In this document: piece by piece, positions 20,558-29,910 of the stretch
Position numbering within the stretch: position 1 is the stretch's first letter
How the letters are laid out: every line of letters starts with the position of its first letter
The notes under the pieces: model-generated
Database searches by the model: none
What the model saw: the letters and a program-made list of their open reading frames with translations, nothing else
What the model was told of the DNA's origin: nothing
Source: an uncultured Bacteroidia bacterium
GTDB taxonomy: Bacteria > Bacteroidota > Bacteroidia > Bacteroidales > UBA932
Direction: 5' to 3'
DNA length: 64,000 nucleotides
Assembly: GCA_902784435.1 (NCBI GenBank)
Contig: CACZUR010000001.1
Span: 16,144-80,143 of the forward strand
Translations under genes and position numbers: made by a program

Positions 20558-20954
20558 GGGGGTGTTTTGGTTTTGACAGCGCCGATGCAGGACGGTAAGC
20601 ACGTCGGGCGTGGGAGCCTTGCCCGTAAATCTCAGACTCCGAACAATCAGTTGCCAACAACAACTACGCACTCGCTGCCTAATTCGGCCAAGTCCAATTA
20701 GCTTAATCCGCCTCGCCAAGGCTGCGGGGCCGACGAGTATCCCTCGGACCTTCCGCCTCTTAAGGGCCGATCAAGGGGTATCATCCATTTGAGGCTGCTC
20801 CGGAGGACGCCTCTAAATCCGGCTAAGATACAAAGGCTAAGGGAAGCTTCGCCCGCCTTCCGGCAGGGCTTCCTCGAAAACCAAAGGACGGATAAGCGTG
20901 TAGAAAGCCGCCAGGTGCGACGTTTGGACAGCGGTTCGAGTCCGCTCACCTCCA
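20558..20954 (+). ncRNA. ssrA: tmRNA
   Basis: 5' GGGGGTG...TTTGACAG pairs with 3' CACCTCC-A after a GCGGTTCGAGTCCGC T-arm. Tag ORF ANNNYALAA* at 20653-20682. TATCTTTG -7 box at 20538-20545. Confidence 0.95.
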
Positions 20955-20999
20955 CAAATACAGGGGGCACTGCCCCCTCATACACCCCCGCGGCTCCCG

Positions 21000-21698: not shown

Positions 21699-23258
21699 TT
21701 ATTTCCTCACTCGCCGGTATTTTTGATTCGGGTCGTTTGGATTTTCTGGAATTGTTCGTTCCAGTTGTCCTGCATCAATCAACGCTTGAATATATCGTTT
21801 CCTGCTTCGAGATTGGTTCTGAATGCCTAGCCTGTTCATAATTTCTTGTGCAGTGCGCGGTATTGAGCAGAAGTTAAGGATATCCTGTTGCTTTTTGGTT
21901 ACTTGGTGCATTGTTGTCAAGCTTGGTGCATTTTTATCTGGAGGTTGGTGCGTCGTTGTTAAGCTCGGTGCATTTTTACTTGGAGGTTGGTGCGTTATGC
22001 TAGAGGTTGGTGCATTTTTATGATGCTCTTTGCGCGGAATGATTATTATGAACTCCTTCGTTTTCTCATTGTCGTTAAAACGTACTTGAACACCCGTCTC
22101 AAGAGCACGTTTAAGTCCGCTGCCAACACCGGTATAAGGTAACAGGAAGATGGCATTGCTAAACAAGAGATCATTTCTGGGCATTGAGACACCGGAGACC
22201 ATGCTCTCTACAGTCATTCCTGCAGGCAAGTTACCGGGACTGTGAATCTCAACACGGTCATCAAAGATGAATACGCGGACTGGCATTCTCCACACAAGGC
22301 TGCGATGAATCAGAGCGTTTGCGGTAAACTCCATAAGAGCAACAGGCGGAATCTCAAGCTCTCCGACGGAATTGAAGTTCTCCTCTACCTGTACATTCCT
22401 CAAATTCCGACTGAAAAACTGCATGATGGAATTGTACTGATGAAGGATATTCCCCTCCATGTCGGTCTCAGAAAATCTGTCACGATACTCGCTTCCGCCA
22501 ACGGAATTCCCGAAGAAACTGAAACATTTGGCAGTATAGGTGGGGAGGAAGCGCTGGGTAACTTTTGCAAATAGAATAACTGCCGCAACAGTAAACCGCC
22601 CGTCCGGCCTAATAAGTTTTAAGTTTCGGAGAATACTTTCTGCCGTTTTATCCTTGATAAGTAGCGAGGCTATCTCATCGGCGCTCAAATCTGAAGGTCT
22701 TCTCCCATCATCTGTCTGCTTGGACAGTGCATCACGAAACTTTTTGAGCAGGAATCTCTTGATGGCATCCATGTCCATGTCGTCCATTGAGGCGTTGGGA
22801 ACTACAGACTCATCGGCCTCGAAGGTGCCACAATCTTCCATCATGGCCTTTAGCTCCATGTTATCGAAAATTTTACGCTTGTCAGATCCTTGCTTGATCC
22901 AAATGATGCCCCGATTGTCGTGATAGGGTTTGTTCGTTCCCTCTTTGACAGAAGCGATAACAAGATTTCCGCCCTCCATCAAGGACGTATCGGTTTCAAT
23001 GAGAATGGATGGATTGAGCATAGTACTGGCGATATTGCCCAGTGTTTGGGTGGTCTCCTGTGTTTCTTGGAAGGAAAGAGGATTGATAGCACCTGTTTTG
23101 TCGTTGATGCCTATTATAATCCGTCCGCCTCGGTAATTGCTCAAGGCACACATCTCACAAGCCATATCGTAGTTATCGACAACTCTTTCTTTGAATTGGA
23201 CTTTGCCTACTTCTGCTAAATCTCTTAGTTCCAGTATCTCTGTCTCGGTCATAACCAT
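21699..23258 (-). CDS. Schlafen/AlbA_2 + HATPase_c_4 + C-terminal HTH protein
   Basis: VQFKE...ALSNYRGGRIIIGINDK; NALIHR...FDDRVEIHSPG...RN; C-terminal ERTIPENPNDPNQKYR. Visibly lower GC than its neighbours. Confidence 0.8.
   Translation of the reverse strand: MVMTETEILELRDLAEVGKVQFKERVVDNYDMACEMCALSNYRGGRIIIGINDKTGAINPLSFQETQETTQTLGNIASTMLNPSILIETDTSLMEGGNLVIASVKEGTNKPYHDNRGIIWIKQGSDKRKIFDNMELKAMMEDCGTFEADESVVPNASMDDMDMDAIKRFLLKKFRDALSKQTDDGRRPSDLSADEIASLLIKDKTAESILRNLKLIRPDGRFTVAAVILFAKVTQRFLPTYTAKCFSFFGNSVGGSEYRDRFSETDMEGNILHQYNSIMQFFSRNLRNVQVEENFNSVGELEIPPVALMEFTANALIHRSLVWRMPVRVFIFDDRVEIHSPGNLPAGMTVESMVSGVSMPRNDLLFSNAIFLLPYTGVGSGLKRALETGVQVRFNDNEKTKEFIIIIPRKEHHKNAPTSSITHQPPSKNAPSLTTTHQPPDKNAPSLTTMHQVTKKQQDILNFCSIPRTAQEIMNRLGIQNQSRSRKRYIQALIDAGQLERTIPENPNDPNQKYRRVRK
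21903..22020 (-). repeat. 42-nt coding tandem repeat (~2.8 copies)
   Basis: Encodes KNAPTSSITHQPPS / KNAPSLTTTHQPPD / KNAPSLTTMHQ. Confidence 0.85.
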
Positions 23259-23306
23259 TAGGTTTGTTGTGGGACATAGTTGCGTGTTGGCAACAATTTT
23301 CAAGAC

Positions 23307-27855: not shown

Positions 27856-28695
27856 TTAAAATTCATATTTCAGTTCTTCCTGGGTCCAGGGGAATACGGA
27901 AACGCTCACGCTGAACTCCTCATAGTCAATTTCCAGATGCACGTCCGGCAGGTTCTTTTCCGTCCAGGTCAGGTTTCCTTTCTGGAGCAGCAAATCGTAT
28001 AGATTGAAGCGGTGCTGCACGCCGGCATGCTCACTGATGTATTCCCGGCCGCTAAGTTCCAGCATCAGGTCCTGGTCGGCCTGCCGGGGCAGCAGGAATT
28101 CGAAATGGCCGATGCCTTCTTCCGGCGGACTGTATTCGAAGCCGCCCCGCAGGGGAACGCCCGTAAAGGCGTCTATCCCGCAGGTGTTCCCCTGTACGCG
28201 GAGGTCGAAAGGGAAACGTCCCTGGGCCGATACGAAGGTTTCCACCCCCACGAACTGGATGCTCACCCGGGTGTACTCCTTGGTGAATTCCACGGGGACG
28301 ATGAACGACTCCTCCTGCACCTCGGCCAGGTAGGAGTAGCGGAACAGCGGCACATAATTGCTGCCCAGGGGTGCCCGCCAGAGGGCTCCGTCGGAGACCA
28401 GGCCTTCTTCTCCGATGAGTCCGTAACCCTTTACGGCATCCGCCCTGCGCACGGAGAAGAAGAAAAGCCTTTCCCGGATGTCCCGCACGGAGGTCTTGGC
28501 TTCGTCCATGACAGCCCCTTGCGGATGACTGTACACATTGGTATACACCTGCGTGTAGGACTGGAAGTCGGACGGCGGGTTCAGGATGTCGAAAAACAGA
28601 AAACTGGGGCATTCCCGCCGGTCTTCCAGCACCCAGCGGTGGCAGGACAGGAGCGGCAGCGTGGCCACGAGGAGTGTCAGTAGCAATCGTTTCAT
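27856..28695 (-). CDS. FimB/Mfa2-like anchor pilin lipoprotein
   Basis: LLSC-HRWVLEDRRECP (C-x-D-xxx-CP anchor signature), LPRQ and C-terminal VSVFPW. Start moved to MKRLLL. Confidence 0.7.
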   Translation of the reverse strand: MKRLLLTLLVATLPLLSCHRWVLEDRRECPSFLFFDILNPPSDFQSYTQVYTNVYSHPQGAVMDEAKTSVRDIRERLFFFSVRRADAVKGYGLIGEEGLVSDGALWRAPLGSNYVPLFRYSYLAEVQEESFIVPVEFTKEYTRVSIQFVGVETFVSAQGRFPFDLRVQGNTCGIDAFTGVPLRGGFEYSPPEEGIGHFEFLLPRQADQDLMLELSGREYISEHAGVQHRFNLYDLLLQKGNLTWTEKNLPDVHLEIDYEEFSVSVSVFPWTQEELKYEF

Positions 28696-28709
28696 AATCA
28701 GAATCTTAA

Positions 28710-28760
28710 TGGAGGGGGACCCGGGAATCGAACCCGGCGTGGCCCCGCATGGCATCCCCC
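28710..28760 (-). ncRNA. 51-nt tRNA-like element (acceptor stem + T-arm + CCA) in the pilus operon
   Basis: Minus strand reads GGGGGAT-GCCATGCGGGGCCACG-CCGGG-TTCGATT-CCCGG-GTCCCCC-T-CCA. Confidence 0.7.
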
Positions 28761-28773
28761 TGCGGCTGCGCCG

Positions 28774-29910
28774 TTAGAATTCGTAAGAAAGGTTCACCGT
28801 ATCGGTCCAGGGATCCACCGTAATGGTAGGTGTCACACGGCCGGCCTGGATATTGTCGTCTTTGTCGTCATTGTCCTTGCCCAGCATGGTGATGTTCACA
28901 TTCTGGATGCTGTACACCTTGTTGGCCTCCAATACAGGCAGGTCAAACACGTAATAAGTGGGTTTGTCGATGCTCACAGCGGCTTTTTTTACATGCGCCT
29001 TGATCACCACACGCGTCATGCGCGGCGTCCAGGTGTCGCCGTGACTGTCCGTGGTCGTCTTGTTGGGATAGGCAAACAGGCAACGTCCCAGGTTGGTCGG
29101 AGAGGCGGGGCTGGCTACCGTGCACACTTTGGTCCAGGTATCGGAAACCACATCCGGCGCCCCGGAAGCCTGTTTGGTCAGTTTGTTATACCAGTTGCTG
29201 GCCGACTCCAGCGTGGCGTCGGTAGGTTCCAGGATGCCAAAAGCGGAATTGGCAGCGTTGGCCGTGGCCGTTACGCCAAGCCGGGAGACTCCCACCACAT
29301 TCTTCAGATAAATATCCTCTACCTGGAAAGATGCCCCCTCCAGGGAGGTCCCGTTGAAATCCACCGTAATGCTCTCCAGAACAACCATGGACGCGAGGCG
29401 CTTGACCCAGATGCCCATGGTCTGAGGCGTCTGGCTACTGTTTTTGTTTTTGTCATATTCGCCCACCGTAATGGTGTTTTTCCCGGACATGACCAGTTTG
29501 GTGGGGGTGTTTTCGCTCAAGTTGCTGAGCTCTGCCTCGAAATCGGCCAGGGAATACACTCCCTGCGTTTTGTACAGACGGCTGTGGTTCAGGAGGGCAT
29601 ATACGGTCTTGGCGCCGGTCATGGTATTGACGGTGACGGAGGTGCTGTTGTTCACGGGAGTAATGCTCTTGAACAGGTCCGTTTCCAACAGATTCTGGGC
29701 ATTGAACACAAAGATCTGTACAGAACTGATCTGGTTGTCTTTCAGGGAAGTATAATCCGACTTGGTCTGGCTTTCTTCCGGTACGGAGATGTTTACGGTC
29801 AAGCTTTCGGTCGGTACATCGGATACGGCCTCGGGGGAGACGTTTTTCCGGCAGGAGAAGGCGGTGAGCAGGGCTGCAGCCGCCGCAAGGTAAAAGAGGG
29901 TGTGTTTCAT
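28774..29910 (-). CDS. Putative major type V pilin (FimA/Mfa1-like fimbrillin)
   Basis: AFSC lipobox, QTKS, QIFVFN, VYALLN, LVMSG, VKRLAS, LFAYPN, TRVVIKA and C-terminal ITVDPW strand. Confidence 0.8.
   Translation of the reverse strand: MKHTLFYLAAAAALLTAFSCRKNVSPEAVSDVPTESLTVNISVPEESQTKSDYTSLKDNQISSVQIFVFNAQNLLETDLFKSITPVNNSTSVTVNTMTGAKTVYALLNHSRLYKTQGVYSLADFEAELSNLSENTPTKLVMSGKNTITVGEYDKNKNSSQTPQTMGIWVKRLASMVVLESITVDFNGTSLEGASFQVEDIYLKNVVGVSRLGVTATANAANSAFGILEPTDATLESASNWYNKLTKQASGAPDVVSDTWTKVCTVASPASPTNLGRCLFAYPNKTTTDSHGDTWTPRMTRVVIKAHVKKAAVSIDKPTYYVFDLPVLEANKVYSIQNVNITMLGKDNDDKDDNIQAGRVTPTITVDPWTDTVNLSYEF

Follow-up and report, generated by a model that had tools for sequence, protein, structure and literature searches.

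Some rumen and gut Bacteroidales have a conserved, covarying tRNA mimic between the major-pilin and anchor-like cistrons of their type V pilus operons

Bacteroidales, among them gut commensals and Porphyromonas, adhere by fibres known as type V pili. Hundreds of major pilins are required per anchor or tip subunit, all from one operon, and how this is achieved is poorly understood for these pili. In the window, which is the whole stretch of 64,000 nucleotides analysed here, the gene of a major pilin is separated from the gene of a putative anchor by a gap of 78 nt, and most of this gap is taken up by a sequence resembling the acceptor and T-arm half of a tRNA. The locus raises the question of whether this is an RNA structure under selection and, if so, what a tRNA mimic does in the middle of a pilus mRNA. 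A covarying tRNA mimic at the exact boundary of the major-pilin and anchor genes offers a concrete and testable mechanism for the unequal output of the two subunits.

The host genome is a metagenome-assembled genome (MAG) of 2.23 Mb with a completeness of 82.6%, and its relatives are rumen Bacteroidales MAGs. Matching DNA is present in bovine and sheep gut metagenomes. The original prediction had placed the gap in a type V (FimA/Mfa) pilus operon, and the genes identified around it agree with this. The gene directly upstream (positions 28774 to 29910, minus strand) codes for a FimA-like major pilin of 378 aa with a lipoprotein signal, which matches PF06321 (FimA) with E = 2.2e-7. For this pilin, 138 homologues at 43-94% identity were identified, nearly all of them belonging to PF06321. 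The downstream gene (27856 to 28695, minus strand) codes for a lipoprotein of 279 aa, which is Mfa2/DUF5119-like and is considered a putative anchor. No Pfam match was obtained for this protein; it resembles clusters with PF08842 or PF17145 by Atlas language-model features only, and its Mfa2 assignment is a lead only. In addition, the operon encodes SSB-like, OmpA/TPR-like, 359-aa and 1151-aa proteins, the last with a weak match to DUF4906, and both DUF3575 and SSB are present in homologous loci.

On the minus strand, the TAA stop codon of the pilin gene (28776 to 28774) is followed by 13 nt, by the element itself (28760 to 28710), by a further 14 nt and by the ATG of the next gene at 28695. 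The 5' acceptor strand GGGGGAU (28754 to 28760), as read from the sequence and the predicted fold, faces the 3' acceptor strand GUCCCCC (28714 to 28720), and the T-arm between them, CCGGG-UUCGAUU-CCCGG (28721 to 28737), consists of a 5-bp stem with the loop UUCGAUU. A linker of 16 nt (28738 to 28753), with a GG dinucleotide about 5 nt 5' of the T-stem, stands in place of the D, anticodon and variable arms. The 3' acceptor strand is followed by U73 (28713) and an encoded CCA (28712 to 28710). Nucleotide -1 (28761) is an A that is able to pair with U73, giving an 8-bp stem. In the minimum free energy (MFE) fold, a 4-bp hairpin, CGGC-GCA-GCCG (28763 to 28773), is located between the stop codon and the element, and the 14 nt behind the element (28696 to 28709) form an A/U-rich leader of the downstream gene. 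The base-by-base reading of the 78-nt gap given in the original prediction was borne out exactly.

All 12 stem pairs of the window element are standard, with U7-G66 being a wobble, and the acceptor/T-arm fold was obtained with ViennaRNA both as the MFE and as the centroid structure. The folding energy is no better than that of GC-matched dinucleotide shuffles (z = +0.39), so that fold stability is not usable as evidence and significance has to come from comparison. In strain variants from metagenome contigs (L068, L078 and runs X5, X7 and X20), the gap differs only at positions 28768-28769 in the loop of the small hairpin, which reads GCA or CAA, while the element is identical to that of the window. 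For X5 and X7, 28-37 differences were counted in the flanking coding sequence over a 2-kb stretch, with the element unchanged.

An ATG at 28755 lies within the element and is in frame with the downstream gene, so that the ORF listing gives a product of 299 aa; for a homologous locus, the public gene call likewise begins inside the element (L111:1785, 298 aa). A coding N-terminal extension from this ATG was rejected, since it is missing from relatives and linker lengths differ by non-multiples of three. By such an in-frame ATG, automatic annotation can bury the RNA in a falsely extended N-terminus.

As in tRNAs, an acceptor stem of 7 bp stacks on a T-stem of 5 bp, the T-loop has the form UUCRANN and the tail is of the N73-CCA type. 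However, it was called a tRNA by ARAGORN neither in the window nor in 12 related loci, and the Rfam tRNA model gave no match to the window element at E <= 10. Together with the 10-20 nt left between the acceptor and T stems, this upholds the earlier statement that the element is not a decoding tRNA. No model of Rfam 15 reached its threshold on the window element. The only models touching it are mascRNA-menRNA (RF01684) and a 17-nt T-arm piece of tmRNA, for which the T-arm alone gave a local match of 14 bits. An intrinsic (Rho-independent) terminator was also considered and rejected, since the gap contains neither a U-tract nor a terminator-like site, and the tail reads UCCAUUAAGAUUC. What was found is a conserved tRNA-mimicking acceptor/T-arm structure inside a longer transcript, between cistrons, as in t-elements and mascRNA. 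This bacterial operon-internal tRNA mimic is a new RNA family absent from Rfam 15.

The comparison started from metagenome contigs encoding the closest pilin homologues, and species genomes and JGI metagenomes were scanned with a pilin profile, which gave 65 more loci. About 20 distinct homologous or paralogous pilus operons share this architecture and its location, and their pilins are between 94% and about 28% identical to that of the window. In the relative with a 94% identical pilin, U7-G66 is replaced by C-G, and at 77% pilin identity G5-C68 is replaced by A-U. At 59% identity the whole acceptor reads AGGGGGC/GCCCCCU. Further loci have diverged in the acceptor (CGCAGAG/CUCUGCG, CGGAGGC/GCCUCCG, AGGAGAC/GUCUCCU) and in the T-stem (CGGGG/CCCCG, UCGGG/CCCGG, AGGGG/CCCCU). 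A strict pattern scan was performed, demanding a perfect 7-bp acceptor, a perfect 5-bp T-stem, the T-loop U[UC]CRANN and a linker of 4-90 nt. In 355 kb of homologous loci, read on both strands, all 24 of the 24 matches lay shortly behind the stop codon of a pilin gene, on the same strand as that gene. Applied to the whole own genome of 2.23 Mb, the same scan returned the true tRNAs, about 21 weak chance matches and the window element.

A covariance model was built from seven sequences, rebuilt from 11 and used to align 15 distinct elements, three of which (L110, L111 and L117) lie outside the model. Covariance-model alignments were used in place of plain MAFFT, which on 11 elements misplaced the 5' acceptor strand. 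Among the 15 elements, standard pairs occupy 99.4% of the cells, and compensatory double changes were found in seven of the 12 stem pairs (23 cells), affecting five of the seven acceptor pairs and pairs 1 and 2 of the T-stem. The covariation score was reached by none of 500 shuffles, and when the 3' partners were slid by 1-3 columns as a control, pairing amounted to 75% or less. G-U wobbles occur on the sense strand only, which shows that selection acts on the RNA of the sense strand, the mRNA. The 35-nt core is 71-97% identical to that of the window, compared to 30-52% at the four-fold degenerate sites of the adjacent pilin gene.

With the rebuilt model (R2), a genome-wide search of another MAG recovered L117 with new stem sequences. 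The operon of L117 is paralogous, with a pilin 33% and a next gene 36% identical to those of the window. This MAG (G301) contains two distinct pilus operons, L040 and L117, each with a tRNA mimic of its own, one being a long form with a 59-nt insert and the other a short form with the acceptor AGGGAGC/GCUCCCU. These results show that the element is a selected, strand-specific RNA structure that mimics the acceptor/T-arm half of a tRNA and is conserved between the major-pilin and anchor-like cistrons in some rumen and gut Bacteroidales. Structural conservation and covariation, whose absence would have refuted the original prediction, are thus present in homologous operons, and a tRNA mimic under selection within an mRNA is well supported by covariation, by conservation and by the lack of a relic origin.

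The last of these points concerns the view that the sequence is a relic or recombination site at the DNA level, for example a decayed tRNA gene, an att remnant or a cassette boundary. The long forms described below do resemble decayed cloverleaves (L062), the pilin genes are hypervariable and a tmRNA gene is located 8 kb away. However, none of the 39 tRNAs called by ARAGORN in the host shares the stems of the element, and near-identity to the 3' half of a host tRNA, which the original prediction had named as the mark of an att-site relic, was not found. No sequence within three mismatches of its 28-nt 3' half was found in 150 sampled genomes of the family, their tRNAs included. The stems of the host tmRNA are different (GGGGGUG/CACCUCC and AGCGG/CCGCU). 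The element is present in one copy only in its own genome, with no second copy or direct repeat, and BLASTN and pattern searches of the 150 family genomes yielded no copy either. Compensatory changes and sense-strand G-U pairs point to selection on RNA pairing, the core is far more conserved than the adjacent four-fold degenerate sites, and the GC content of the operon is that of its flanks. A relic or recombination site is therefore largely refuted and hardly credible. An att-site relic was rejected, as the element resembles neither a host tRNA nor the nearby tmRNA, is single-copy and has no bounding repeat. An island inserted at the tmRNA gene was likewise dismissed, since the 3' end of the tmRNA is not repeated and the GC content of the operon does not depart from that of the flanks.

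The features kept among 17 distinct elements are those of the tRNA elbow and tail. In the T-loop, U54, C56, G57 and A58 are invariant and position 55 is U in 16 of the 17, with positions 59-60 being free, which amounts to the canonical T-loop motif. In the tail, C74 is found in all 17 elements; position 75 is C in 11, A in five and U in one, and position 76 is A in 14. Thus CCA is encoded in 11 elements, and CAA, CUC or CAC replaces it in the other six. The same tail pattern, C74 with CCA or CAA, is found in the trailers of the host's own tRNA genes: about six of 39 encode CCA and most do not, C74 is present in nearly all, and CAA is the trailer of many. Position 73 varies (U in nine, A in three, C in three and G in two). 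A standard pair between positions -1 and 73 is formed in 13 of the 17 (AU in eight, GC in three, UA and UG in one each), a sequence pattern which suggests an 8-bp stem like that of tRNA-His.

The region between the two stems is less constant. Short-form linkers comprise 10-20 nt, and in every one of them a GG is found a few nt before the T-stem, possibly mimicking G18-G19 of the D-loop. The GCC/GGC mini-hairpin that had been noted in the window linker could not be aligned across clades. In many linkers a stem of 3-4 bp can close a loop containing GG, with a register differing by clade, and in some it cannot; a conserved linker mini-hairpin is a possibility only. Long forms carry inserts of 39-64 nt between the acceptor and T stems, and such cloverleaf-like versions are located at the same place in divergent operons with pilins about 28-29% identical. 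The gut long forms L062 and L066 have a 6-bp acceptor, the T-loop UCCGACU and cloverleaf-like folds. The long forms were called tRNA by no tool, and Rfam gave nothing for them at E <= 1.

The distance from the pilin stop codon to the element ranges from 6 to 105 nt, with 6-16 nt in most loci and 6-12 nt in several lineages. On the other side, the next start codon lies 17-25 nt from acceptor position 72 in all loci that have an element and whose start is in view; for L080, L083, L110 and L117 this was read by hand. The small hairpin in front of the element is present only in the closest clade (L031, L033, L037, L068) and is absent or replaced in the other clades.

Many sister operons lack the element, which is thus facultative, and for the short form at least four gains or losses were counted on the pilin tree. 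In a sister clade of 13 members, the next gene overlaps the pilin stop codon by 11 nt. In L042-L050, L052, L056, L077, L081, L084 and L086 the gap is missing, and the next gene starts inside the pilin gene, at an ATG 11 nt from its end (ATGAATTCTAG-type overlap); this arrangement is presumably a translationally coupled alternative. When model R2 was applied to 150 family and 150 order genomes with strict filters and 37 candidates scored per genome, only the own genome and one true tRNA were returned.

Which role the mimic has in the operon can be approached from the features that were kept. For a plain hairpin, neither an invariant T-loop nor C74 nor a host-like trailer would be needed; these features fit those read by tRNA-processing enzymes. 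Model substrates consisting of an acceptor stem and T-arm are cleaved by bacterial RNase P. Grounds for a processing role also come from the host genome, in which the RNA of a type A RNase P (171 bits) and a gene resembling RNase Z (262 bits, just below the curated cut-off) were identified. Precedents of tRNA mimics cut by RNase P and RNase Z in t-elements and mascRNA (PMC3790967, PMC4919922) count in the same direction, as do the position at the pilin stop codon, the covariation, the sense-strand wobbles, the conservation of the core, the recovery of L117 and the existence of the long forms. From this analysis, tRNA-maturation enzymes may cut the operon mRNA at the element and sever the pilin part from the distal genes, as the original prediction had proposed, and a probability of about 0.5 is assigned to this reading. 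The host enzymes would recognise the element as a pre-tRNA; RNase P, with its type A RNA, would cut on the 5' side after position -1 or -2, and RNase Z or exonucleases would act on the 3' side. The abundant major-pilin message would be separated from the distal low-copy genes, both parts would decay and be translated independently, and the downstream message would keep a short leader of fixed length, about 14-22 nt.

Several observations count against such processing. U(-1) is usual in bacterial pre-tRNAs, but nucleotide -1 of the element is mostly an A paired with U73. Sister operons devoid of the element, with genes abutting or overlapping by 11 nt, are numerous. A CCA-adding enzyme (PF01743) was not found in the host MAG, although the majority of its tRNA genes depend on one; this is probably a gap in the 82.6%-complete assembly. 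In several lineages the element begins 6-12 nt after the stop codon with no protective hairpin in front of it, so that a cut would leave the pilin mRNA with an unprotected 3' end close to its stop codon, which looks unfavourable for the subunit needed in the largest amount.

This last point gives real weight to the idea that the element stays on the pilin mRNA as a tRNA-shaped, CCA-ended terminus, serving as a 3' cap or exonuclease barrier. Here, no productive cut by RNase P would take place; the terminus would result from a cut or from decay further downstream, would be trimmed or repaired like the end of a tRNA, and would protect the pilin message by selective processing and stabilisation while the distal part decays. 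The short distance between stop codon and element (6-16 nt in most loci) is more in keeping with a 3' cap than with a 5' cut. Other homologous operons have at this position plain GC hairpins, a terminator-like hairpin with a U-run (L053) or a 10-bp hairpin followed by GUACCAA (L101 and L102), and intergenic stem-loops that control stoichiometry have been documented in other bacteria (PMC10311766, PMC9045158). However, RNase P would be expected to cleave a canonical acceptor/T-arm helix with CCA well and so to remove the cap, and a simple barrier requires neither the invariant T-loop nor C74; a stable cap is thus an unlikely, though serious, explanation. The constant distance of 17-25 nt to the next AUG, compared to the variable upstream distance (6-105 nt) and linker (10-64 nt), could instead point to a translational insulator or spacer. 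By holding the A/U-rich start region of the next gene free of structure and at a fixed spacing, or by uncoupling terminating ribosomes from re-initiation, such an element would tune translation of the anchor gene in an organism that makes no use of Shine-Dalgarno pairing, and it would fit the use of overlapping, coupled genes in operons lacking it. However, the spacing could be a mere minimum leader left by compaction, and neither a T-loop motif nor a CCA/CAA tail is required for this role, which is regarded as rather improbable.

Processing by tRNA-maturation enzymes, the preferred reading, might also set the ratio of major to minor pilins and release a small RNA of ~51 nt, as the original prediction had proposed, in the form of a stable CCA-ended minihelix. 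That this RNA is itself active, either charged by a synthetase (for example in a His-like manner in lineages with G-1:C73) or as a decoy that draws off a tRNA-binding factor, is very unlikely. The original prediction had considered aminoacylation possible, and this is weakened by the variation of N73 and the replacement of CCA in six of the 17 elements; with N73 varying and CCA often being CAA, conserved aminoacylation is unlikely. Still less probable is that the excised minihelix is the purpose of the element, as a trans-acting product that is aminoacylated, CCA-tagged or a decoy. An encoded CCA, which is absent from most host tRNA genes, is found in 11 of the 17 elements, G-1:C73 is present in three elements as in tRNA-His, and the U73 of the window clade is shared with tRNA-Gly and tRNA-Cys. 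However, neither N73 nor the acceptor sequence is conserved, so that the elements share no one synthetase identity, CCA is missing from some of them, and the element is single-copy, bound to one position of one operon and was not found in the 150 family or 150 order genomes sampled.

Related principles have been described in other systems. In plant mitochondria, tRNA-like t-elements in the untranslated regions of mRNAs are located at the ends of the mature transcripts (Forner et al. 2007, PMC1920247; PMC3790967) and are cut in vitro by RNase P (PRORP1) and RNase Z (PMC3790967). Like the pilus element, they are mimics of those parts of a tRNA that are read by tRNA-processing enzymes, embedded in an mRNA. 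However, t-elements are organellar, are cut by an RNase P made of protein alone and are unrelated in sequence to the pilus element, which is found in a bacterial host with an RNA-based type A RNase P and is a candidate cleavage site between two cistrons. For the MALAT1 and MEN-beta RNAs, as cited in PMC4919922, a cut by RNase P makes the 3' end of the upstream RNA (Wilusz et al. 2008), and RNase Z together with CCA addition releases the small RNAs mascRNA and menRNA. These share the acceptor stem, the T-arm and the reduced central arms with the pilus element, and their model, RF01684, is the only one in Rfam that aligns with the window element from end to end. The score of 18.3 bits (E = 0.64) lies far below the gathering threshold of 42.5 bits, so that membership is not indicated, and the long forms gave no match to this model. 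Moreover, mascRNA and menRNA belong to mammalian nuclei, where the long noncoding RNA is protected by an upstream triple helix; no conserved equivalent of this helix is present by the pilus element.

In bacteria, the tna, secG, rbs and his operon mRNAs of E. coli were described, as cited in PMC4919922, to be cut by RNase P between cistrons (Li and Altman 2003, Alifano et al. 1994), and by that account these sites resemble the proposed role in being intercistronic, in lying on operon mRNAs of a bacterium and in affecting relative expression. The pilus element differs from them in being an explicit mimic of acceptor, T-arm and CCA. The E. coli sites are not known to be canonical tRNA mimics or conserved covarying motifs. 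Intercistronic stem-loops set subunit stoichiometry in the cip-cel operon (PMC10311766) and in ABC importer operons (PMC9045158). Like the pilus element, they are structured and follow the gene of the most abundant subunit; however, they are plain hairpins or internal terminators, whereas the pilus element has no U-tract and has tRNA-specific features. The tRNA-like domain of tmRNA (RF00023) also combines an acceptor stem, a T-arm and a CCA-type end in the absence of an anticodon arm. In contrast to tmRNA, the element has no mRNA-like domain and no G3-U70 pair, and the stems of the host tmRNA are different, as given above. The full-text literature searched contained no account of a tRNA-like element in pilus operons of Bacteroidales, and the earlier remark that such an element was not known for type V pili agrees with this.

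If the proposed cut is true, the principle of t-elements and mascRNA, by which tRNA mimics serve as punctuation of mRNAs and which so far applied to organelles and mammalian nuclei, would reach free-living bacteria. If the minihelix were active as well, the output of pilus subunits would be coupled to the state of the translation apparatus, as a bacterial form of "tRNA punctuation". In engineered Bacteroides operons, the element could find use as a compact natural part for insulation or processing.

Other structures were observed at the same position. In L053, a GC-rich hairpin followed by UUUUU (L053:3607-3660), resembling an intrinsic terminator, is located in the gap between the pilin gene and the next gene, which suggests that this position is generally used for 3'-end formation or attenuation. 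Behind a distantly related pilin, two covarying hairpins were identified (L101:3068-3160 and L102:2057-2150), the second having 10 bp and a 6-nt loop, with GUACCAA following it; this second hairpin is possibly a CCA-tailed helix with the same kind of function, reduced still further.

In six loci from same-genus genomes (L011, L012, L015, L016, L017 and L020), a shorter operon is present, consisting of genes for a TPR/OmpA-like protein, a FimA-like protein of 323 aa and an Mfa2-like protein of 266 aa, with no tRNA mimic between pilin and anchor. About 100 nt after these genes, a tRNA-Leu(CAG) gene follows on the same strand and then a 2-hydroxyacid dehydrogenase gene. This tRNA gene was considered as a relative of the element and rejected, as it is a normal tRNA gene behind the shorter operon and unrelated. 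In the window, the tmRNA gene (20558-20955, about 8 kb from the element) encodes the tag ANNNYALAA and has CAA rather than CCA after A73. It is followed by a Schlafen/AlbA_2-HATPase-Fic_C gene (21699-23303) of lower GC content (0.46-0.50), which abuts the last pilus gene.
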